NCBI GenBank assembly: GCA_014378465.1
Contig: JACMNQ010000065.1
Span: forward strand, 5,186-69,185
Source: Oligoflexia bacterium
GTDB lineage: Bacteria > Bdellovibrionota > UBA1018
Direction: 5' to 3'
Length of the DNA stretch: 64,000 nucleotides
The notes under the pieces were generated by a model. It did not search any database and was not told the DNA's origin. It worked only from the letters and a program-made list of their open reading frames with translations. This document shows positions 1,285-60,752 of the stretch, in pieces (within the stretch, counting starts at the first letter, position 1; each line of letters begins with the position of its first letter). A program made the translations under genes and the position numbers.

Positions 1285-2198
1285 ATAAAAATCTCTTCAT
1301 CACCGCGCATCCCGCGCCCTGGGAGTCCGCCTCCGAGAAAGAACTCCGCAAAGTCAAAGGCGTCTGCCTTGACATCGATGACACGCTTTCGACTCACGGC
1401 AAACTCACGGCCGAGGCCTATCAGGCCCTCTGGAACCTGAAGAACGCAGGCTTTTTCGTGGTCCCGGTCACGGGCCGTCCTGCAGGCTGGTGTGATCACT
1501 TCGCGCGCTTTTGGCCCGTGGACGCGATCATCGGCGAAAACGGCGCTTTCATCTTTTACATGCATGAAGGCAAAAGAAAGAGACTTGACACTCTGGGCGC
1601 GGCTGCGGGAACGGAAGTGACTCGCAAGCAGAACCTTGAAGAGCTCGGAATAAAAATTCTCGCACGTTACCCCTTCGCGAAGTGGGCTTCCGACCAGAGT
1701 TACCGCGAGTACGATCTTGCGATCGACATCTGCGAGGATGTTCAGGCCTGGAAGAGCGAAGACGTGCAGGGGCTTCTTGAACTCTGTCACGCGCAAGGGG
1801 CGAAGGCCAAGCTCTCGAGCATTCACGTCAACGCCTGGTTCGGAGAGTTCGACAAGCGCAAGGGTTTCGAGAACTGGATGAAACTCGGCTACCCGGGGCT
1901 TGAGAACGCGCGGGGGCCCGACTCTACAGTTCTGGCGCTACCCGCAGAAAACGAATGGCTTTTCATCGGTGACTCTCCGAATGACGAGCCCCTTTTCGCG
2001 ACATTTGAGTTCAGCGTCGGAGTGGCTAATCTGAAGAAATATCTAAGTCCTCAGACTCAAACTCAGAACTCAAGTCAGAATCCAGCCCAACCGCCCGCTC
2101 TGACTCATCCGCCTCGTTGGTTGACTCAGGCTGAGAGTGGAGCTGGATTTGTCCAAATGTCGGACCGGCTCGTAGCTTTGCGTAAAGCTCGGGGCTGA
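1281..2198 (+). CDS. HAD superfamily (Cof-like / IIB) phosphatase
   Basis: Motif I CLDIDDTL, a later GDSPNDEPLF motif IV, and an ATGA start/stop overlap with the CDF gene. The C-terminal ~50 aa are low-complexity and overlap the convergent RluA-like gene. Confidence 0.7.
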   Translation: MNKNLFITAHPAPWESASEKELRKVKGVCLDIDDTLSTHGKLTAEAYQALWNLKNAGFFVVPVTGRPAGWCDHFARFWPVDAIIGENGAFIFYMHEGKRKRLDTLGAAAGTEVTRKQNLEELGIKILARYPFAKWASDQSYREYDLAIDICEDVQAWKSEDVQGLLELCHAQGAKAKLSSIHVNAWFGEFDKRKGFENWMKLGYPGLENARGPDSTVLALPAENEWLFIGDSPNDEPLFATFEFSVGVANLKKYLSPQTQTQNSSQNPAQPPALTHPPRWLTQAESGAGFVQMSDRLVALRKARG

Positions 2199-3225
2199 AC
2201 GCGGTCGCGGGATTTCTTTCGCGTTCGATGAAGTCCTGGATATCTTGCGGAAGCGGCGCCGCATACTCCACCTTCTTGCCCGTGAAGGGGTGCACGAAGC
2301 TGATGCCTGCGGCATGCAGCGCGTGTCTCGGCAACATGAGTCTGGCTTCGAGTTCAGGGGAGATGTACTGGCGGTCATACATGCGAACGGAATCCGTTTC
2401 GGGTACGCCGTAGAGTTTGTCGCCCACGATGGGGTGGCCTGCTGACTCGAGGTGCACGCGGATCTGGTGCTGTCTCCCGGTTTTGGGCATGCACTCCACC
2501 AGCGAAAAATGTCCAGCAGTCTCGATGCGTTTGAACTTCGTCGCCGCGGGCGCGCCGCCCTCTTCGAGCGGGATGCAGGCCATCTTGAGGCCCACGATCG
2601 AAGTTTTGGAGCGTCCCATCGGCAGGTTCACTTCAAACTCGTCGGGAGTGATTCCGTGCACGAGTGCGAGGTACTTTTTTTCTGTACTTCGCTGGGCGAA
2701 TTGTTTCGCGAGGTGGGCGCAGGACTCCTTGTCCTTGGCGAGCACGAGCACTCCGCTCGTTTCCTTGTCGATCCGGTGCGCGAGAAAATAGAATTCTTCC
2801 GCCTTGAGTGGATTTTTCTCACTTTCAGTTTTCAAATGGACCGTCAAAGTGTTGAAGAAGTAGCGTCCGGAAGGATGCACCGGCAGATTTGCAGGTTTTG
2901 AAATCACGAAGAGCACAGTGTCCTGGTGGAGGATCTTGTAATCGAAGGAGACTTCGGGCTCTGGCTTTCGTTCGCTTTTCACAAGCACGACGTCGCCTGC
3001 GACGACCTGCAAACTGGCTTTCATCTTTCCGACGGAGAGGTGAGCGCCCTGCTCGCGCTGAATGGTGATGGCTCCTTCATCGATCGCTTTCTTGATCTGT
3101 TCGCGCGAGCGCTTGCGGTAGAATCCCTTGATGTAGCGGTCGAGTCGGATGCCCGATTGATTCGGGCCTACCGTGTAGCTGACGAGGTAGTGCTCGGAAG
3201 TGAGGGTATGGGAAATGATGGCCAT
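2026..3225 (-). CDS. RluA-family 23S rRNA pseudouridine synthase (S4 domain + catalytic domain) with acidic C-terminal tail
   Basis: N-terminal S4-like segment (GIRLDRYIKGFY...), catalytic motif HRIDKETSGVLVLAK, and conserved GRQHQIRVHL. The acidic tail (SEFESEDLDISSD) lies in the 173-bp convergent overlap with the HAD gene. Confidence 0.8.
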   Translation of the reverse strand: MAIISHTLTSEHYLVSYTVGPNQSGIRLDRYIKGFYRKRSREQIKKAIDEGAITIQREQGAHLSVGKMKASLQVVAGDVVLVKSERKPEPEVSFDYKILHQDTVLFVISKPANLPVHPSGRYFFNTLTVHLKTESEKNPLKAEEFYFLAHRIDKETSGVLVLAKDKESCAHLAKQFAQRSTEKKYLALVHGITPDEFEVNLPMGRSKTSIVGLKMACIPLEEGGAPAATKFKRIETAGHFSLVECMPKTGRQHQIRVHLESAGHPIVGDKLYGVPETDSVRMYDRQYISPELEARLMLPRHALHAAGISFVHPFTGKKVEYAAPLPQDIQDFIERERNPATAFSPELYAKLRAGPTFGQIQLHSQPESTNEADESERAVGLDSDLSSEFESEDLDISSD

Positions 3226-3282
3226 AGCGCGTTAAGTGGTCCTACCATAGAATGCGGACCGCAGTTTGCAAAAGTGGGGGCC

Positions 3283-51977: not shown

Positions 51978-54355
51978 GAAATCCTCGTCAGCGGAGGAGG
52001 GGCGTCGGCCGGATTTGAGGGATGATTCGTCAAATGACCCGACCTCAACGTGAAGTAAAAGGTCGTTCCATGCCCAAGGCTCGAATCAAACCAGATTTTG
52101 CCGCCGTGGCGTTCGATGATTTTCCGAACGATGGTGAGACCGGCTCCTGATCCGCCGCCGTATTTGTCCTGCGCATGGAGTCGCTTGAAGATCTGAAACA
52201 CCAGATCCCGGTGCTTGAGATCAATTCCGATCCCGTTGTCACGGACGAAAAAGACCGGGCACTCCGCTGATTCCGGGCCGCCCCCCTGCTGCACGGTCCC
52301 GATCTCAATCGTCTTCTTCTCGATTTCATTGTACTTGGTCGCATTGACGATGAGGTTATGGAAAACTTCGGTGATCTGAATCCGGTCGCAGACCAGAGTG
52401 GGCAGTTCCCCCAGGATGGTCACGTTCGCATGAGTGTCAGTCAGACACGTTCTCAGGGAGTCACATGCCTCTTCGACCGCTTCCCGAAGCGGGGTTGGCT
52501 GAAGTTCAAGGTCGATGCGGCCAACCCGCGACAACCGAAGGAGCGACTCGATCAGAGCATTCATCCTGCCCGTCATGGTCATGAGTCGACTCAATTTGTG
52601 TTTTCCGTCTTCATCAAGTTTGTCGGCGTAGTCTTCGATGAGAAAAGTGGCATAAGTGTGAATGCCGCGCAGCGGTTCCTTGAGATCATGCGAAGCCACG
52701 TAAGCGAAGGAGTCGAGCTCCTGATTGCTTCTCTCAAGTTCCTGATTGAGTCTGAACATTTCCTTGGCGCGGTCCGCGATGAGCATCATGAAGGCCTGCC
52801 TGAACTCAAGCGCGATTTGCTTCTCGGAGGCTTTCCAAGGGGTGCTTTTTCCCCTGACGATTTCATCCCAGAGTTCGAAGGATTTCCGAGGCGTGAGTTT
52901 TTCACCAGAAGCGAGATTCTTCGCTGATTTGCGCGGATCAGCGCCCCAGGGGATGGTCTGCATCTGTTCGCTTCGAAACCAGATCACCACATATTTCTCA
53001 TCCGGCGTCAGTGAGACGCCCAGCATCCCGCTCGCCTGTGACGCCCAGTCTGCGGCATGGGGAAAGATTCGGGCGATCTCATCCGTCGCATAGACGGGCT
53101 GTTCGCTCTGGTTCATCACATGGTTCACCAGTTCAGAAATCGCTTCACGGGGCGGGGTCTTTCCCAGCAGGAGCGGGGGTTCGTTGCGCAGACAGAAGGC
53201 GGCTCCTTCGGCTTCAACCATGGCGAGAAAGTCCTCTTCCTGGCTTTTGATCCCCTGAAGAAGCGTACGAACATCAGGGGCGCTCAGGAGTTTCAGAACA
53301 TCAAGCAGATGCACTCGCAGGCGGAGTTCGGCTTCGGTTTTTATTTTGGTTTCGAGACCCGGAATCTGAAGCGAGATGATTCTTCCGATGAACTCACATG
53401 CCGCACGTTTCTGATAATCGAGTTCATGGGGAGAATCGTGATGGCAGGAGATGAGGCCCCAGAGTTCCCCGTCCTTGACAAGGGAAATGGACATGGAAGC
53501 TTCGACTTGAATGTTGCTCAGATATTCGACATGAACGGGCGATACGGCTCGCAGAAAGCATTTGCTCAAGTCCAGGCGGTCTCCTGTTACCGGATTGAAT
53601 TCGGGCACGATGGGAGAAGAAGGAGCCTTGACTTCCGTGATCAGACGCAGGCGGTTGAGTGCAAACAGGCGCCGCGCCTGTTTCGGGATATCGCTTTCAG
53701 GAAAATGCAGTCCGAGAAAAGCGTCCTGGTCATCCCGTTTTCGCTCAGCGATGACTTTCAGGTGTCCACCCTCCACGACCCGGTGAATCCACACGCGGTC
53801 AAAGCCGGTGATGGACCTCACTTCTTCGACTGCACTTTCACAGAGGTCATGAAGCGAGGCAGCCTGCTGAATCCGGAAGATTGAACTGGTGAATTGATCG
53901 TAGAATTCCACAAAAGAAAGCAGCGGTTCGCTTTGAAGAGAGGTCTCAAACTCCAGAACCGCGATGGAGGCTTCGATGGATACTTCTGGCAAAGGATGAA
54001 TGGAGACCGTGTAGTCCCGGACTCCGCCGCTGAGCTGCAGGGAAAGTTTCAGCGGCTTCACTTCCTTCGAATCAATTGAAGCCTGCAGTTGGTCGCCCAG
54101 GCGCTGAGTGTCTCGTGGATTTATCCAGCCGGAAATGGATCTGCCGAGGAGGGCACTGGCCGGCAAATCCATGAAACTGACACAGTTTTCGCTGGCCTGA
54201 AGAATTTTCCCGGAGGGAAACTGAACCACGAGGAGACAGCCGTGGGGCTGCACGCCACCGATCAGGTGGATGGGTTCCCGGTCACAATTGGTCAAATCAA
54301 CGGTCTGCCCCGCGGTTTTCCAGGAATTGAAAGTGCTCACCGGGGAGCCACCCAC
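51974..54355 (-). CDS. bphP: bacteriophytochrome photosensory histidine kinase (PAS-GAF-PHY-HisKA-HATPase_c)
   Basis: N-terminal CDREPIHLIGGVQPHGCLL (biliverdin-binding Cys plus PAS knot region). GAF with ...DIPKQARRLF...HVEYLSNIQVEASMSISL... HK H-box ASHDLKEPLR and ATPase boxes. Confidence 0.85.
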   Translation of the reverse strand: MGGSPVSTFNSWKTAGQTVDLTNCDREPIHLIGGVQPHGCLLVVQFPSGKILQASENCVSFMDLPASALLGRSISGWINPRDTQRLGDQLQASIDSKEVKPLKLSLQLSGGVRDYTVSIHPLPEVSIEASIAVLEFETSLQSEPLLSFVEFYDQFTSSIFRIQQAASLHDLCESAVEEVRSITGFDRVWIHRVVEGGHLKVIAERKRDDQDAFLGLHFPESDIPKQARRLFALNRLRLITEVKAPSSPIVPEFNPVTGDRLDLSKCFLRAVSPVHVEYLSNIQVEASMSISLVKDGELWGLISCHHDSPHELDYQKRAACEFIGRIISLQIPGLETKIKTEAELRLRVHLLDVLKLLSAPDVRTLLQGIKSQEEDFLAMVEAEGAAFCLRNEPPLLLGKTPPREAISELVNHVMNQSEQPVYATDEIARIFPHAADWASQASGMLGVSLTPDEKYVVIWFRSEQMQTIPWGADPRKSAKNLASGEKLTPRKSFELWDEIVRGKSTPWKASEKQIALEFRQAFMMLIADRAKEMFRLNQELERSNQELDSFAYVASHDLKEPLRGIHTYATFLIEDYADKLDEDGKHKLSRLMTMTGRMNALIESLLRLSRVGRIDLELQPTPLREAVEEACDSLRTCLTDTHANVTILGELPTLVCDRIQITEVFHNLIVNATKYNEIEKKTIEIGTVQQGGGPESAECPVFFVRDNGIGIDLKHRDLVFQIFKRLHAQDKYGGGSGAGLTIVRKIIERHGGKIWFDSSLGHGTTFYFTLRSGHLTNHPSNPADAPPPLTRIS

Positions 54356-54984
54356 TCGGTCAATCGCTCAAAGCTCTCATGAGCGGAGTTGCAGAGGTTT
54401 TTTTCCTGCGCCGGATGGGCCTGCACGAATCGCTTGAGAGTTTCCGTGAAAGCCTTCCAACGAGGCCCTGTTTCCGCGCCGTAGATGGAAAAGTAATGCA
54501 TCGCTGTCGTTCCCTGAAGTCCCAGAGTCTTGGAGAGGTGGTTGCTGATGATGCGCCCTCCGAGGCTTGAACCTTCGATGACGTACAGAAAGCCCAGGCG
54601 CTGCGCCGGGGTTTCGAGGGGAGGCAGATCCTTGCACCAGGAGAAATCCGCGATTTCCCGCTGCGCGAAGCCCAAGGTGATCAGGTCGTGAAGGATTGCA
54701 GGGGCCCTGATGCGTGCGGGGTAAGAAAGCTCCGTGAGCCAGGGGTCTTGTTGCAGTCTGTCAATGGCGGAAAGCCTGGCCTCCTGGGGGACGAGGAAAG
54801 TGTAGAAGCGGCTGAGAAGTTGACCCAGCTCCCCATGGGAAAGGTCTGGCGACATCAGGAAGGCCAGTCGGGACTCGATCTTCAGGTGTGACGACTCCGT
54901 ATGGACCTTGATCCTGCCCAGAACGGTATCCACGCGTTCAGCAGCAATGGGAGCTACTTTAGAAGCCTGGTTTTGTAGTGACAT
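54337..54984 (-). CDS. bphO: heme oxygenase (biliverdin-producing, BphO-like)
   Basis: About 215-aa all-helical protein with proximal His region (TESSHLKIESRLAF). Immediately upstream of bphP with a 19-nt overlap. Assignment rests mainly on context plus weak motif match. Confidence 0.55.
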   Translation of the reverse strand: MSLQNQASKVAPIAAERVDTVLGRIKVHTESSHLKIESRLAFLMSPDLSHGELGQLLSRFYTFLVPQEARLSAIDRLQQDPWLTELSYPARIRAPAILHDLITLGFAQREIADFSWCKDLPPLETPAQRLGFLYVIEGSSLGGRIISNHLSKTLGLQGTTAMHYFSIYGAETGPRWKAFTETLKRFVQAHPAQEKNLCNSAHESFERLTEWVAPR

Positions 54985-55160
54985 AATTCCTTTTGTGCTT
55001 TTATATTCAACACTTCACCAGTAGTCAATTGACTCAAAATAGTCGAGGCCAAACCCGCCTTTTTGGCGTTTCCCTCGGTGGTTCACCTGGAGTCGGACAG
55101 AATCAGGATAGAAGTCGGCAGGTGCGGGCAACATCGAAGAGCTGGCCGCTCCTGCCTGAC

Positions 55161-55169
55161 GGGGGGGGG
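55161..55169. repeat. G9 homopolymeric tract in divergent intergenic region
   Basis: GGGGGGGGG flanked by TGCCTGAC/CAGAC. Lies between the bphO operon (minus) and the secreted-protein / clan-CD-like gene pair (plus). Confidence 0.9.
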
Positions 55170-55245
55170 CAGACTTTTGACGGTCTCGAAGTGCCTTTCC
55201 TCAGGCCACATTTCTTCAAGCCACTGTGTGATTTGCCGAAGAGTC

Positions 55246-55662
55246 ATGAGGAGTAAACTGCCCCAAATGACCTTGCGCAGCTTGGCCCAGACTCTCATGA
55301 TCGCCTTTTTCACTTTGCCTCTGAACTCTCGCGCAGGCACCGTCGAAGTTCATGCGCTCAAGCCGGGCGCGAGTCTGGATGAATTCGCGAATATCAGTGC
55401 GAAGGTTCATTCGTATGAATCTCAGCACGGAACCGCAGGTGACCTGCCTTTCACGGCGAAAAAGCGCAACCACTGGCTGCAGGAATCAGGACTGAGTGAA
55501 GTCACGAAGGACTGGGATGCACTCAAGCGGGATGAACTGGTCCTCAACGCCGGGGTGGTTTCTGAAGGCGCCTTGACTGCGAAATACCCGGATCTACCCC
55601 CAGTCCGGTTGCGGAAGTTGAGACGCCTGCGAGTGCGGGCCGCACGAGGGTCAAAATCCTGA
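55246..55662 (+). CDS. hypothetical small secreted protein (Arg-rich C-terminus suspicious)
   Basis: Signal peptide MRSKLPQMTLRSLAQTLMIAFFTLPLNSRAG. The last ~20 aa (VRLRKLRRLRVRAARGSKS) look like out-of-frame translation and overlap an alternative open frame that leads into the next gene. Confidence 0.4.
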   Translation: MRSKLPQMTLRSLAQTLMIAFFTLPLNSRAGTVEVHALKPGASLDEFANISAKVHSYESQHGTAGDLPFTAKKRNHWLQESGLSEVTKDWDALKRDELVLNAGVVSEGALTAKYPDLPPVRLRKLRRLRVRAARGSKS

Positions 55663-55685
55663 AAAATCTGCTGAACCTCCGCTTT

Positions 55686-57086
55686 GTGAGTCTCGCGTTC
55701 GTCGCCATGACAGCCGTTTCGGCCTGCACTGCCGACTCGGCGTCGGCAAAAATTCTGTTTCTCAATCTCAATGATGCGGAGCCTGAGATCCAGGTTGCTC
55801 GAGCGGAGGCGCTCCGCCGAGGCGAAGAATTCGTGGTGATTCCAGACTCCGATTTCATCCGGCGAAAGACTGAATCGCTGAAAAAAATGAACGCGGTGAC
55901 GCCCAGCTCAAAGTTGTCCTCCCAGGAAATTCAGGATGCAGTCGTCCGTCTTGGAAAGGGTGCAACCACCGTGATCATCTCCGGACACTCCGACGGCACG
56001 GAGTACCATGGAGACACCGTCGAAACCATTTTGCGTCAGGATCTGGTTCGTGCCTTCAAAAAGGCGGGAATGGATTCGAGCATTCAGTCGATCTACCTCT
56101 GGGGCTGTTACACGGCGTCTCATGGCGCGGTCCGCTCATGGGATACGATTTTTCCAAATGCTCATTACCTCATCGGGTACACGACTGCGGGAGCGCCCAA
56201 GAATGACCGCGAAGGTCCACGGCAGTTGGCCGGTGCCTTGCGGGCTGAGGAGAAGATCAGGAGCGAATCCGATTCAAAACAGATCCTGGCGGATCTCAAG
56301 CTCGTCAATCAGGGTGATCGTCATTCGCTCGGAGGGCGGGTCAATGATCACTACTACTGTGTCCAGCGTGGCCTGATCACCGGTCTGGACGAAATCAAAG
56401 AAGGTTGCCGGGATTTTGCCCACAGCATGGCCGCCGAAAAGTATGATCTCTATGATCCCTATTTCAGCGGTCAGCTGCCGATCCCGGAGGATGGTCTCAA
56501 GAGTCCGCTGAGGGCTTTCTATCAGAATGTTCAGGATCATTCCCAGTGTCTGCTCTGTGGCTCCGAAGAAGAGCAGGAGAAAGTTCTGAAAGAGATGCAG
56601 TCCAGCTTCAATCAGAAGGATCTTGAAGCACTTTCGCAGATCCCCTGTCCGGGCGTGCTGATCCGTTTGATCAAATTCAGTCACATCGTGAACAATTATC
56701 GCAAGGTTTACGCTCGGGAGTTCGATTTCTACAGGAAAGAATTCAAAAAGCTGCCTCCGGCTTCTCCCGAGAATGCAGCCTGCAGAAAGATTCTCACGGG
56801 TGAATACGGCCCATCCGATCGAAAGCTCTTCGAGGATCTTGCGAGGGATTCCGTTTGCAATGACATGAATCTGCCAGCGGAGCTTGCAGATCTGGCGGCA
56901 AGTTCGATTCGAAGAGCGGAGACCCTGCTCGGAAACTTGCGAAGTGTCCCTTTTTCCTGGATCGCGGACGCCCCGACGGACCAAGCGCCCGAGTCACTGA
57001 TGAATTCTCCTGAAGAGCTGAGTTTGAGTCTGGCTCCGATCACCGCGGTGATTCTCCCACCGTCAAGGCCAGGCGGCACGAATTAA
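55686..57086 (+). CDS. putative lipoprotein with caspase/CHAT-like (clan CD) His-Cys dyad
   Basis: GTG start as given in the ORF track. The in-frame upstream extension VKILKNLLNLRFVSLAFVAMTAVSAC looks like a complete lipoprotein signal peptide but has no canonical start. Candidate dyad VIISGHSDG ... IYLWGCYTASHG, about 40 aa apart. Tentative. Confidence 0.4.
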   Translation: MSLAFVAMTAVSACTADSASAKILFLNLNDAEPEIQVARAEALRRGEEFVVIPDSDFIRRKTESLKKMNAVTPSSKLSSQEIQDAVVRLGKGATTVIISGHSDGTEYHGDTVETILRQDLVRAFKKAGMDSSIQSIYLWGCYTASHGAVRSWDTIFPNAHYLIGYTTAGAPKNDREGPRQLAGALRAEEKIRSESDSKQILADLKLVNQGDRHSLGGRVNDHYYCVQRGLITGLDEIKEGCRDFAHSMAAEKYDLYDPYFSGQLPIPEDGLKSPLRAFYQNVQDHSQCLLCGSEEEQEKVLKEMQSSFNQKDLEALSQIPCPGVLIRLIKFSHIVNNYRKVYAREFDFYRKEFKKLPPASPENAACRKILTGEYGPSDRKLFEDLARDSVCNDMNLPAELADLAASSIRRAETLLGNLRSVPFSWIADAPTDQAPESLMNSPEELSLSLAPITAVILPPSRPGGTN

Positions 57087-57553
57087 AGAAGTCCGATCTT
57101 CTTCGCTATCCAGACGGTGAAGAGAAGAGTGGCCGCAAGCATCGCGAGTGCGAGAAGCAGTCCCAAAAGCATCACGGTACTGAGCAGCAGAGTCGATCGA
57201 CGACTCACGCGGTGGGGATTGTCAAAATAGGCGCGCAGAATGCGTGAATTTCTGAGATTGGCTTTGTAAGCGACGTGAAAGATGTCCCCGGCGACTGGAA
57301 ACGCGCCGAGTGTGGTTTCAGCGGCGACGTTTCCGACCATTCGGAGCACCACGGACTGGGGCGCGCCGGCACGCGCGGCTTCAGCCACGATATAGAAAGA
57401 CAGAACGAGGGTCAGGAGATCTCCCACGACGGGAATCAGTCCGATGATGCCATCGATGCCAAACCGGATCCCTCCGATTCGAAAGCGTGTATCCAGTAGA
57501 TTCGCGACTGCGTCAACTCGAGCCAGAGTCGGATTGGAAGCAGGTGGATTCAT
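57083..57553 (-). CDS. DUF4112 family membrane protein
   Basis: LLDTRFRIGGIRFGIDGIIGLIPVVGDLLTLVLSFYIV signature followed by a C-terminal TM helix. Confidence 0.6.
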   Translation of the reverse strand: MNPPASNPTLARVDAVANLLDTRFRIGGIRFGIDGIIGLIPVVGDLLTLVLSFYIVAEAARAGAPQSVVLRMVGNVAAETTLGAFPVAGDIFHVAYKANLRNSRILRAYFDNPHRVSRRSTLLLSTVMLLGLLLALAMLAATLLFTVWIAKKIGLL

Positions 57554-57723
57554 CAGGATGCTCCTTCATTTCGCTTGGGAGAGTTCACTCCGGAACATGC
57601 CTTGCAACTCCCCTCGGAGACTTGCCGAAGTTTGACGCTTCACTCATCAGCAGTTGCCGGCAAGTCTGCGAACACTGTCCCAAATTGCCCTCGACTCAGA
57701 TTTTTAACCAGAGGAAACGTCTC

Positions 57724-58104
57724 ATGAAACTTTCAGCTTTGATCCTGGTCCTGGGTGCACTGTCGGCCTGTTCTTCGACTTCTTCGCGATCTGGGCCACA
57801 GACGGGGTTCACGACGCAGTCCAACGGCGATGCCCGGAATCCCTCTCCGGGTGCTGGCAACGCGCCAGGAAATGCTCCTGAGAAAACCTATGAGGCAGGG
57901 GTGATCTCTCCTTCTTCAAATGAGCTCGAAGCCCTTGAGCGCCGAGGGGAGCGAGACGGAACTTCGCCTCAGGATCCCAACACGAAACGTCAACAAGCTG
58001 GGAAAATGGCCCCTCGCTCTGAAGCCACTCCGAAACCCGCGGCCCCGGAATCAGATCCGAGCTATGAAACGGAATCTGACTACGAAAATGCGCCCACGAA
58101 CTAG
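57724..58104 (+). CDS. hypothetical lipoprotein (low-complexity, Pro/Ser/Glu-rich)
   Basis: MKLSALILVLGALSAC lipobox. Start chosen at the internal ATG; the track's upstream extension is antisense to the DUF4112 gene. Confidence 0.5.
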   Translation: MKLSALILVLGALSACSSTSSRSGPQTGFTTQSNGDARNPSPGAGNAPGNAPEKTYEAGVISPSSNELEALERRGERDGTSPQDPNTKRQQAGKMAPRSEATPKPAAPESDPSYETESDYENAPTN

Positions 58105-58178
58105 CCCCACGAACTGGCAAAGCAGGGCCGCGAACACTGGCGTCATCCTTCTCTTTCGGTTAGGCTTCGGGCACCCTC

Positions 58179-60752
58179 ATGGCGCCCAAACTCATTCCGC
58201 TTCCCATTGATTCCTCTCTGTCTGAGATCCTGCGGGAGCTCGAAGCGCGGAATTGCATCGTCGTTCAGGCTGAACCGGGTACGGGAAAAACCACGCGCAT
58301 CCCGCCGGCATTGTTGCAGGCGAGCTTTCGAAAACCGGATCAGGAGATCCTGGTGCTTGAGCCCAGGCGTCTCGCCGCAAAGATGGCGGCTTTTCGCGTG
58401 GCTGAAGAAATGGGCGAGTTCCCGGGTGATGCAGTTGGTTATCATTTTCGCTTCGAGAAAAAGGCAGGCCCGAAGACTCGACTTCTTTTTCTGACCGAAG
58501 GCATGCTCATGCGCCGGCTTCTGGGAGATCCGACTTTGAAGAACGTGGCGGGCGTCGTGCTCGATGAGTTTCATGAAAGACACCTTCATGGCGATCTCGG
58601 GCTCGCCTACCTGCGGCGGCTGCAGAAAACCGTGAGACCTGAGCTGAGGCTCGTCGTCATGTCGGCCACTCTGGATGCGCAGGGGATCGCGAAATACCTC
58701 GGCGACTGCCGCACTCTGCTGGTGCCTGGCTCAAAATTTCCCATCTCGATCGAGTACCTGAGTTCCGGCACGGGACGCGCACGCGATCTCGAAACTTCCG
58801 TTCGTGATGCGGTCGTTGAAGCACTGTCGCGTCCGGACGCCGAAAAGTTCGGGCATCTGCTCGTGTTTCTTCCGGGGATGGCGGAGATCAGGCGAAGTGC
58901 GCAGGCGCTCGAAGCGGATTCGCGGAGATTCAATTTTGATGTGTTTCCGCTTCATGGTGAGCTTTCCCGAGAAGAGCAGGAGCGGGCCATTCAGCCTTCA
59001 AAACCAGGACCCGGAAATCCGCTCGGCCGAACCAAAGTGATTCTTTCCACCAATGTCGCCGAAACTTCGCTCACCCTGCCGGGCGTGAACACGGTGATTG
59101 ACAGCGGACTCGCACGAGTGGCCAGTTACTCGAGCTGGTCAGGTTTGCCGTCTCTCAAGACCAAAGCCGTGAGCAAGGCTTCCGCGATTCAGAGGGCAGG
59201 AAGATCCGGTAGAACTTCCCCTGGACGCTGCTTCAGACTCTATTCCAAAGGCGAATTCGACGGCAAGGCGTCGTTTGAAATTCCAGAAATTCTGAGAGCC
59301 GATCTCTGTCAATCGTTGCTCGAACTCAGTACGATGGGCATTCAGGATCCTTCCGATCCACTGAAATTCGAGTGGTTTCAGGCTCCACCCCCACAGGCGC
59401 TGTCGTCTGCACGGTCTCTGGCTGAGATGTTGGGAGCCTTGGATTCTTCAGGAAAGTTGACTCCACTCGGCCACCAGTTGGCGGAGCTCCCGGTTCATCC
59501 GCGACTCGGAAAACTGATTCTTGAAGGAGTGAAAAGGGGAGTCAGCACCGAAGCCATTGAGATGGCTTCGCTCTTGAGCGAGGCGAAGAACTCTCCCGGC
59601 AGCAGTCTTGATCTGCTCAGGGAGTTCGACTCCTACCAGCCCGGTGAAGCCGGCCGAAAGTTGATTCAGCAACTTTCGGCACGCATGCCGTCCAACCCCA
59701 GACCGCGCATGAATCCTCCACAAGACCGTGAACTGCAGCTCAAGCTTGCACTGCTCAGCGCGTTTCCCGACCGGGTGGCGCGCAAAAAATCACTGGAGAA
59801 GGGCTCCGTCTTTCAGCTGGTGATCTCCAGTGGAGGATCCGTCACCGTCGAGCAGTCGGCGGTGGTGAATTTTGCAGAGTACTTCGTGATCCCCGCACTC
59901 CAGGAAAGTCAGGGCCTTGGGCAGTTGCGTTCTTCACTCCGGGTGCGGTCACTTTTTTCCATCGAGCCCGAATGGCTTTTTGATCTGGAGCCTTCCGGGA
60001 TCACTGAAACCGATGAGATGAGCTGGGATGCGGATCGAAAGCGCGTCTTTCAGTTATCCATGTTGAGTTACGGCCAGCTGATTCTTTCACAGAGCAAGGG
60101 GGTGCCTTCGGACGCTCCCGCTGTCCGGCGAAAAGCGGCCGAGCTTCTCGCCGTTCAGGTTTCAAAATTTCTCAAGACCCATCTTCCTTCTCAGGAAGCG
60201 CTCAAGGAAATGAGGGTCAGACTGTCGCTTCTCAAGAAGCATTCGGGTCTCGAACTGCCGGAGTTTCCGGGGGCGGATGATGCGGCCTTTTCAGCGCCTC
60301 TGCTCGAGGTCTGTCTGGGGAAAACCAGCTGGAGTGAAATTCAGTCTGAAATCGATGCTGAGTCGCTTGTTTCAGGCCTTGTGCAGAGCTGGCTTGCACT
60401 GCAGGACCAGAGCTCGCTCGCCAATCGCCTCGACCGTGAGGTTCCCCTTCAGACCGTGCTGGCTCGAGGTCGAAAAGTGAAGATTCATTACGTGGAGAAT
60501 CAGGCTCCCTGGATTGAGAGTCGAATCCAGGATTACTTTGGCATGTCTGATGGCCCGAAGATTCTGGGAGGCAAACTTGCCCTCACTCTCCATTTGCTCG
60601 CGCCCAATTACCGGGCCGTGCAGGTGACTTCTGATCTCAAGGGGTTCTGGGTCCGAAGTTACGCTGAGGTGAGAAGGGAGTTGGGGAGACGCTATCCCCG
60701 GCACTCGTGGCCGGAAGACCCGCTTCAGGCTTTTGTGGAAAAATCCCGCTAG
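58179..60752 (+). CDS. hrpB: ATP-dependent RNA helicase HrpB (DEAH-box)
   Basis: AEPGTGKTT Walker A, DEFHER (DEAH variant), SAT, helicase C, HA2 domain and the HrpB-specific C-terminal domain. 857 aa. Confidence 0.85.
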   Translation: MAPKLIPLPIDSSLSEILRELEARNCIVVQAEPGTGKTTRIPPALLQASFRKPDQEILVLEPRRLAAKMAAFRVAEEMGEFPGDAVGYHFRFEKKAGPKTRLLFLTEGMLMRRLLGDPTLKNVAGVVLDEFHERHLHGDLGLAYLRRLQKTVRPELRLVVMSATLDAQGIAKYLGDCRTLLVPGSKFPISIEYLSSGTGRARDLETSVRDAVVEALSRPDAEKFGHLLVFLPGMAEIRRSAQALEADSRRFNFDVFPLHGELSREEQERAIQPSKPGPGNPLGRTKVILSTNVAETSLTLPGVNTVIDSGLARVASYSSWSGLPSLKTKAVSKASAIQRAGRSGRTSPGRCFRLYSKGEFDGKASFEIPEILRADLCQSLLELSTMGIQDPSDPLKFEWFQAPPPQALSSARSLAEMLGALDSSGKLTPLGHQLAELPVHPRLGKLILEGVKRGVSTEAIEMASLLSEAKNSPGSSLDLLREFDSYQPGEAGRKLIQQLSARMPSNPRPRMNPPQDRELQLKLALLSAFPDRVARKKSLEKGSVFQLVISSGGSVTVEQSAVVNFAEYFVIPALQESQGLGQLRSSLRVRSLFSIEPEWLFDLEPSGITETDEMSWDADRKRVFQLSMLSYGQLILSQSKGVPSDAPAVRRKAAELLAVQVSKFLKTHLPSQEALKEMRVRLSLLKKHSGLELPEFPGADDAAFSAPLLEVCLGKTSWSEIQSEIDAESLVSGLVQSWLALQDQSSLANRLDREVPLQTVLARGRKVKIHYVENQAPWIESRIQDYFGMSDGPKILGGKLALTLHLLAPNYRAVQVTSDLKGFWVRSYAEVRRELGRRYPRHSWPEDPLQAFVEKSR

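Follow-up and report, generated by a model that had tools for sequence, protein, structure and literature searches.

A two-gene cassette for exported proteins in an Oligoflexia bacterium, with a candidate CTG start in its gene of predicted clan CD fold

Reading frames at the locus

We analysed a stretch of 64,000 nucleotides (nt) from an Oligoflexia bacterium (assembly GCA_014378465.1, contig JACMNQ010000065.1), hereafter the window, in which two overlapping genes lie on the forward strand. The upstream one, which we call the partner gene, is a small gene for a putatively secreted protein at 55246..55662; it encodes 138 amino acids (aa) from ATG 55246, and is annotated by NCBI with 131 aa from ATG 55267 (H7222_13960). 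The downstream one, the large gene, occupies 55659..57086, or 475 codons plus a stop, if it is read from CTG 55659, the start that we infer below; its public model (MBC7692863.1) has 459 aa from ATG 55707. Read in this way, both reading frames are intact and nothing at the junction is frameshifted.

Translation of the three forward frames of 55200-57300 places a TGA at 55563-65, after which the frame of the large gene is open from 55566 to its stop at 57084-86. An initial annotation of this DNA had reported that this frame holds no ATG, GTG or TTG before GTG 55686, and our translation reproduces this: the only canonical in-frame starts before 55710 are GTG 55686 and ATG 55707, and the near-cognate codons in frame are ATA 55584, ATC 55656 and CTG at 55659, 55668 and 55671. 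The same annotation had described a signal-like stretch upstream of the GTG and two motifs, VIISGH and LWGCY, and all of these are found. A signal-peptide-like ...VKILKNLLNLRFVSLAFVAMTAVSAC is encoded 5' of GTG 55686, the tetrapeptide VSAC fits the lipobox pattern, and both motifs lie in the translated frame, with the His codon at 55986-88 and the Cys codon at 56106-08. The upstream open reading frame (ORF), in the +1 frame, ends with ...PPVRLRKLRRLRVRAARGSKS followed by TGA 55660-62. GTG 55686..55688 (forward strand), the first canonical codon in frame, lies 24 nt past this stop, lacks a Shine-Dalgarno (SD) site and would give a product MSLAFVAMTAVSAC... without a basic n-region. ATG 55707..55709, on the same strand, is the start chosen by both the NCBI and the Logan gene calls, and the 459-aa product, which begins MTAVSAC, has no signal peptide.

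The open stretch at 55566-55658 corresponds to the -1 frame of the 3' end of the upstream gene. Among sampled -1-frame positions in the long ORFs of this window, 33% are followed by at least 31 open codons. Because a third of such positions stay open equally long, the stretch carries no weight: it is no more than chance, and only the last ~10 codons before the GTG matter.

The partner gene and its junction with the large gene

A word-indexed protein search with the large protein had just two matches, itself (P0001, 459 aa, MBC7692863.1) and a relative at 27% identity (P0002). The family became visible in a full HMMER scan, for which the profile was built from two sequences: 724 cluster representatives (clusters at 50% identity) scored E<=1e-3, and 589 reached 1e-10. 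Family members are 435-810 aa long, and the named ones, from Bdellovibrio, Bdellovibrionales and Halobacteriovoraceae, are all 'hypothetical protein' without a Pfam domain; some genomes, such as those of Bdellovibrio sp. KM01 and ZAP7, carry two copies. We compared gene arrangement at 18 related loci, namely that of P0002 (L001), 12 genome loci (Bdellovibrio, Bdellovibrionales, Halobacteriovoraceae) and five loci of the closest subfamily. A homologue of the partner adjoins the large gene at all 18, upstream in 17 and downstream in one (L018); its homology was assigned by pairwise BLASTP, a 14-sequence alignment and, in five further loci, matches of a hidden Markov model. At L001, a 128-aa gene precedes that of P0002 and overlaps it via ATGA, and its small product aligns with the upstream ORF of the window (BLASTP E 7e-11) through YPDLPPVRLRKLRRL / YPNISPQKLATLKNL.

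The partner of the window consists of an N-terminal signal peptide, a disordered linker and a conserved C-terminal helical domain with a terminal basic helix. In all its homologues a signal peptide and a variable linker precede a conserved module of the form ...W[DS]xLEKDxLxLRA...YPxIPxxxL, which is followed by a basic tail, and the Arg-rich tail of the window aligns with the Lys/Arg-rich tails of these homologues. An AlphaFold2 (AF2) model of the partner has predicted local distance difference test (pLDDT) values >90 for residues ~60-125, and the Arg-rich tail is modelled as a helix (112-128), also >90. Because homology runs to the very end and the tail is modelled as a confident helix, the upstream frame must be under selection up to its stop codon. 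The tail had been dismissed earlier as Arg-rich junk; the homologue alignment and the model instead point to a conserved basic C-terminal helix. Scans against Pfam and NCBIfam gave zero matches for the partner, the partner of P0002 likewise has no relevant Pfam match, and a fold search with the AF2 model gave no informative match.

Adjacency at 18/18 loci, overlapping coding sequences and signal peptides on both proteins argue for a physical or functional pair in one compartment. By analogy, the partner may be a co-secreted regulator, either an inhibitor or a chaperone. Staphopain with staphostatin, and gingipain RgpB with its pro-domain (PDB 4ief), are examples of proteases with a cognate inhibitor or chaperone. 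The cassette resembles protease-inhibitor operons in its strict linkage of a cysteine-protease-like gene to a small partner gene and in its overlapping coding sequences; it differs from them in that both proteins have signal peptides and that no similarity of the partner to known inhibitors was detected. In L018 (ENA ERZ28653421 scaffold_4488, 1501-3268) the large gene comes first and the partner homologue after it, with an overlap of ~56 nt as called, and adjacency of the pair thus survives rearrangement. At L021/L022 (685-1504) two consecutive small ORFs of 122 and 123 aa precede the large gene; the proximal one alone matched the partner profile at the threshold used, and the distal one could be a diverged duplicate or unrelated.

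The layout of the partner stop and the large-gene start is strongly patterned. At seven of the 18 loci the two overlap by four bases (-4), as ATGA in L001, L007, L011, L012, L014 and L015 and as GTGA in L021, and at five the layout is TAATG or TGATG (-1); the others are -11 (two loci), -20, +5 and +10 (one each) and the one with swapped order. In all 13 of L001 and L004-L015 the large gene starts with ATG and a signal peptide, the partner stop lying at -4 (6), -1 (5), -11 (1) or +10 (1). The five loci of the closest subfamily are more varied, with -11 ATG, -20 ATG, -4 GTGA, +5 GTG and the swapped order. Among the 17 loci with the partner upstream, 16 have the start within 11 nt of the stop, and in L019 the start overlaps the stop by 20 nt.

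The window has this same four-base overlap of co-oriented genes. At 55659..55662, on the forward strand, it reads CTGA, in which CTG 55659-61 overlaps the partner's TGA 55660-62 at -4 spacing; the downstream codon is CTG and not a canonical NTG start. NTGA is the commonest coupling motif and spacing (PMC12548453), and the geometry of coupled NTGA (-4) or TGATG/TAATG (-1) pairs is found at 55659-62 and at 12/18 related loci; the difference is that here N = C, the sole base that gives no canonical start. MAFFT alignments place the Met-Lys of the homologues on the (CTG)Leu-Lys of the window, and the second codon is AAA (Lys) both here and in L001. An SD-like GAGGG lies within the 3' end of the partner at 55646..55650 (forward strand; -6.4 kcal/mol against the anti-SD), 8 nt before CTG 55659 and 5 nt before ATC 55656. 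Such a strength at 4-10 nt spacing is matched by 5% of random window positions. Neither GTG 55686 (+0.4 kcal/mol) nor ATG 55707 has a comparable SD-like site upstream, and at 6/13 of the first homologous junctions a site of <= -5 kcal/mol likewise lies inside the 3' end of the partner. RNA folding at the junction is not outstanding (z = 0.26).

The shared -4 geometry, the Met-Lys alignment and the spacing of GAGGG together identify 55659 as the likely ancestral start of the large gene, now a near-cognate CTG that is one base from ATG, GTG or TTG. A start-codon change was one of the options offered by the initial annotation, and the NTGA junction that reads CTGA in the window agrees with it. 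The proposal that the true N-terminus lies upstream of the annotated GTG or ATG and carries an export signal is borne out too, as the Met and signal peptides of the homologues align there; the orthologue alignment that had been suggested for finding the ancestral start points to 55659, upstream of both codons. Upstream of the pair, two overlapping sigma-70-like promoter matches lie at 54958..55007 on the forward strand (2 against 1.0 expected from shuffles, which is weak and not significant); these hexamers are weakly consistent with a separate two-gene transcript.

Predicted export and fold of the large protein

From CTG 55659 the large gene encodes a signal peptide, (M)KNLLNLR-FVSLAFVAMTAVSAC-TADSASA (55659..55748, forward strand), in which the Cys codon of VSAC is at 55725-27 and an AxA-type site, SASA|K, stands at the end. 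VSAC conforms to the lipobox [LVI][ASTVI][GAS]C, and a basic n-region is present only if translation starts at 55656 or 55659. The homologues have AxA|D sites directly before a conserved strand, ILF(L/I)DLN, and the SASA|K of the window aligns with these. At the position of the lipobox Cys the relatives have no Cys; L013 and L014 do have one, in a context that is not a lipobox. Export of the large protein is well supported, its lipidation is not. The 'textbook lipoprotein' of the initial annotation is doubtful, because the relatives use AxA|D signal-peptidase-I sites and do not share the Cys. An ORF nearby, at 57487-58104 (forward strand), has a far more typical signal of this kind, where an internal Met is followed by MKLSALILVLGALSAC; this ORF continues as low-complexity sequence rich in Ser, Pro and Gly, and a Pfam scan gave no match.

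An AF2 model of the large protein, based on a 39-sequence alignment, has a mean pLDDT of 83.6 and a predicted template modelling score (pTM) of 0.82. It comprises a domain of clan CD fold (55749..56384, residues 31-242, caspase-hemoglobinase-like, with His110 and Cys150), an all-helical C-terminal domain (56385..56993, residues 243-445, with conserved Cys250, Cys297, R285, Y288, N346 and VPFxW) and a C-terminal tail (56994..57083, residues 446-475, pLDDT <50), all on the forward strand; the tail is probably disordered and replaces the coiled coil of the long members. Members of the family have a signal peptide and an alpha/beta domain, followed by a helical domain rich in Cys; most also have a long coiled coil, which the subfamily of the window lacks. 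The helical domain is marked by the motifs CYxxAxxxCxxPPxNT...LRxxYNxLQxxxHC, IRLIFF and VPFxWVEP.

In peptidases of clan CD the catalytic His follows one strand and the Cys a neighbouring strand, and most clan CD families have His-Gly and Ala/Gln-Cys motifs. The domain is modelled as an alpha/beta/alpha sandwich around a mostly parallel central sheet and resembles solved clan CD enzymes in structure, and the dyad stands in the order His then Cys after hydrophobic neighbouring strands: strand 102-108 (TTVIISG) leads to H110, and strand 144-147 (SIYL) to WGC150. His110, Cys150, Ser108 and Gly149 are invariant in the 39 sequences. The two typical motifs are not found literally; those of the family are G-H-[DS]-G/x-x-G and W-G-C-Y. 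The window protein has no Pfam match to Peptidase_C14, C11, C13, C25, CHAT, C80 or DUF4347 even at E<=10, and these families are not among the 25 that are matched by most of the 39 relatives at the same threshold. Pfam and NCBIfam scans of the window protein were empty, a Pfam scan of P0002 gave nothing relevant, the family profile found no clan CD chain among PDB sequences, and Foldseek found no significant match of the model in the PDB. PDB matches of the helical part to S100-A9 and to a Tpp toxin were judged to be chance and rejected. The model thus suggests a new family with a clan CD fold, linked to the clan by fold only and a member of no named family. Of the earlier description as clan-CD-like, the fold and the His-Cys pair stand in the model, and the proposed affinity to C14, C11 or CHAT is not borne out by Pfam profiles at E<=10. 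The large protein is a putative enzyme.

The family can also be set beside known systems. Clan CD peptidases (CHAT, gingipains C25, clostripain-like C11, legumain C13, caspases and metacaspases C14, separase C50) give no sequence-profile match here. They differ from the family in having H-G and (Q/A)-A-C, where it has SGH[DS]GxG and LWGCYT; its domain directly follows the signal peptide and is itself followed by a family-specific Cys-rich helical domain and mostly a long coiled coil; and a small secreted partner gene always adjoins. DUF4347, the domain of the Pseudomonas aeruginosa type VI effector Tce1/PA0256 (PDB 9qpe), has no Pfam match in the window and occurs in a different domain context, and its export through the type VI secretion system is Hcp-dependent, whereas a Sec signal peptide is found here. 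A literature search on Bdellovibrio with caspase or cysteine protease found nothing on the family.

The cysteines of the family are lost in pairs: Cys264 and Cys272 are both absent from the short subfamily, and the window protein has, in addition, neither the Cys of that subfamily's CVP motif nor a counterpart of its C-terminal GC motif. This pairing is compatible with disulfides in an exported protein. One member, P0083 (alignment A6), has Glu in place of the His at the catalytic position (SGESTG) and keeps the GC motif; it is possibly an inactive pseudo-enzyme, and the family may include inactive members.

Start codon use and genomic setting

E. coli infC, with its AUU start, is an example of a near-cognate start codon. 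The window junction resembles genes with such starts (CUG, AUU, AUC, AUA) in that a near-cognate codon stands at the proper spacing from an SD-like site, its use here being presumed. That homologous junctions tolerate starts other than ATG is seen in the GTGA of L021. We consider it rather probable that the locus is an intact two-gene secreted cassette whose large gene ancestrally starts at 55659, with ribosomes still initiating at the CTG. Translation of the partner would terminate on the same four bases and would thereby place ribosomes on CTG 55659, where the retained GAGGG 8 nt upstream would assist initiation. The product would begin fMet-KNLLNLR... and have a normal Sec signal peptide; its basic n-region (Lys2 and Arg8, charge +2) requires a start at 55656 or 55659, and Lys or Arg is present in this region of nearly all homologues. 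Initiation would probably be weak, so that less of the putative protease than of its partner would be made. The large protein may act in the periplasm or outside the cell as a cysteine peptidase or transpeptidase.

Several points weigh against this interpretation. Initiation at CTG 55659 is deduced from sequence, and neither the protein search nor a metagenome scan found a close orthologue with which the CTG could be compared. The signal peptide would be 30 aa long from the CTG, against 19-27 aa in five close relatives (P0127, P0067, P0087, P0050 and P0102) and 21 aa from the GTG. The His-Gly of clan CD is not literal in the motif GH[SD]xG, and the role proposed for the partner is reasoned purely by analogy. 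Near-cognate codons count as rare starts in annotation and initiate weakly in E. coli, where CUG in reporters reaches ~1-2% of the AUG level (bioRxiv 10.1101/063800). GTG 55686, 24 nt past the partner stop, is within reach of a re-initiating ribosome.

It is accordingly possible, if somewhat unlikely, that the ancestral start was lost in the change from NTG to CTG and that ribosomes terminating at TGA 55660-62 scan 24 nt and translate from GTG 55686. Phage fr provides a demonstrated case of coupled re-initiation at +23 to +35 nt (review PMC12548453), the GTG is the first canonical codon in frame, and a product that starts there has the whole hydrophobic core and cleavage region, in a signal peptide whose 21 aa fall within the range of the five close relatives. 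That the product MSLAFVAMTAVSAC... would be exported despite a shortened signal peptide without the basic n-region is likewise conceivable rather than probable: nearly all homologues have the Lys or Arg that it would lack, the GTG has no SD site (+0.4 kcal/mol), and among the 17 loci with the partner upstream 16 start within 11 nt of the stop and none starts 24 nt beyond it. The missing canonical start might instead mark a gene that is becoming a pseudogene, in which start loss has largely silenced the gene or mislocalised its product and the ORF is intact as the mutation is recent; we regard this as improbable, and equally improbable that ATG 55707 now yields a cytoplasmic protein without a signal peptide. 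The window protein does depart from the consensus at 22 of 65 highly conserved columns, more than any other of the 39 sequences, and the Cys of the subfamily's C-terminal CVP...GC pair is missing. Against decay, the 475-codon frame persists, 17/17 invariant residues are kept, including His110 and Cys150, and the SD, the signal-peptide coding sequence and the partner gene are all intact. Several of the most conspicuous departures, such as a GHS motif (SGHSxG for SGHDGNG) and the loss of Cys264 and Cys272, are shared with the short subfamily (P0127, P0067, P0087, P0050 and P0102), and protein decay was therefore rejected as the cause of the divergence. Pseudogenisation, which the initial annotation had put forward, is thus the less likely course.

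Two further explanations would remove the anomaly altogether. Base 55659 might be wrong through sequencing or assembly, or might represent a minority allele, with ATGA, GTGA or TTGA in the true genome; the source is a single metagenome-assembled genome (MAG), and one base change would give back a canonical start. We think this very unlikely. Over 55259-58551 the window agrees base for base with a separate Logan assembly (L003, run SRR9661224), on reads possibly shared with the MAG, and this agreement makes an assembly error at the junction unlikely; substitution errors are, moreover, uncommon in short-read consensus. L003 does show variant sequence nearby: its first 100 bases differ from window 55159-55258 at 12 positions, including two single-base indels, and it is otherwise identical over 3.3 kb. 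Such clustered differences could be a contig-end artefact or a second strain. An accidental or programmed frameshift that fuses the upstream ORF to the large one had also been suggested, frame 0 being open over the last 32 codons of the upstream ORF, and is to our mind extremely unlikely. An equally long open -1 frame is found at 33% of sampled coding positions, an in-frame X XXY YYZ slippery heptamer is absent by eye, RNA structure at the junction is unremarkable (z = 0.26), and a fusion would leave the signal peptide buried within the protein. The upstream frame is conserved to its stop and modelled as a helix, and the homologues of the large protein are all separate genes that start with their own Met and signal peptide, in one locus in swapped order. 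With two genes in 18/18 loci and the upstream frame kept to its stop, the frameshift was rejected.

As for initiation at the CTG, a more speculative version, which we consider fairly improbable, is that the CTG is a weak start kept by selection rather than damage: as it lies on the stop codon of the partner, the enzyme would be made only by ribosomes that finish the partner, at a few per cent of its level, with the putative inhibitor or chaperone always in large excess, and the pair would represent a new Bdellovibrionota-restricted exported family of clan CD fold with an obligatory, co-secreted regulator, possibly acting on prey envelopes. The start of the partner gene is uncertain as well, with ATG 55246 and ATG 55267 as candidates and a third at 55258 in the variant, where a C->A change at 55258 in L003 makes the fifth partner codon ATG, the start used by the Logan gene caller (134 aa).

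The public model of the large gene (459 aa, ATG 55707) drops the export signal, so that the protein would be misread as cytoplasmic, and gene callers limited to ATG, GTG and TTG will repeat this error wherever a coupled NTGA carries CTG. The junction could serve as a compact natural test case for termination-reinitiation at a near-cognate start. The start anomaly is a finding at the level of annotation; the unannotated, partner-linked caspase-fold family is the more interesting result. It is a large family, of 724 clusters, of predicted secreted caspase-fold proteins with no Pfam model or name, on which we found no paper; its named members and genome loci are all from predatory Bdellovibrio-type bacteria, with the partner always adjoining. 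If active proteases, its members would be candidates for prey-directed or self-processing enzymes and a new branch of clan CD.

The initial annotation called the source organism a predator, which is not shown for this MAG. The source of MBC7692863.1 is given as '[Oligoflexia bacterium]' by nr and as 'MAG: ... [Methylotenera sp.]' by the genome record. As the relatives of the cassette are all Bdellovibrionota, Methylotenera is apparently a mistake of binning or labelling, and the distribution of the family fits the nr label.

The cassette stands alone between unrelated genes, and each of its two genes is single-copy in the window. Downstream are a DUF4112 gene (57083-57553, reverse strand) and a gene for an HrpB-type helicase (58179-60752). 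Upstream, at 51974-54984 on the reverse strand, are genes for a bacteriophytochrome histidine kinase and a heme oxygenase. The kinase has the architecture PAS_2-GAF-PHY-HisKA-HATPase_c (793 aa), and its gene shares 19 nt with that of the heme oxygenase (215 aa), its upstream neighbour on that strand; together they form a light-sensing operon, here in a member of a predatory lineage.

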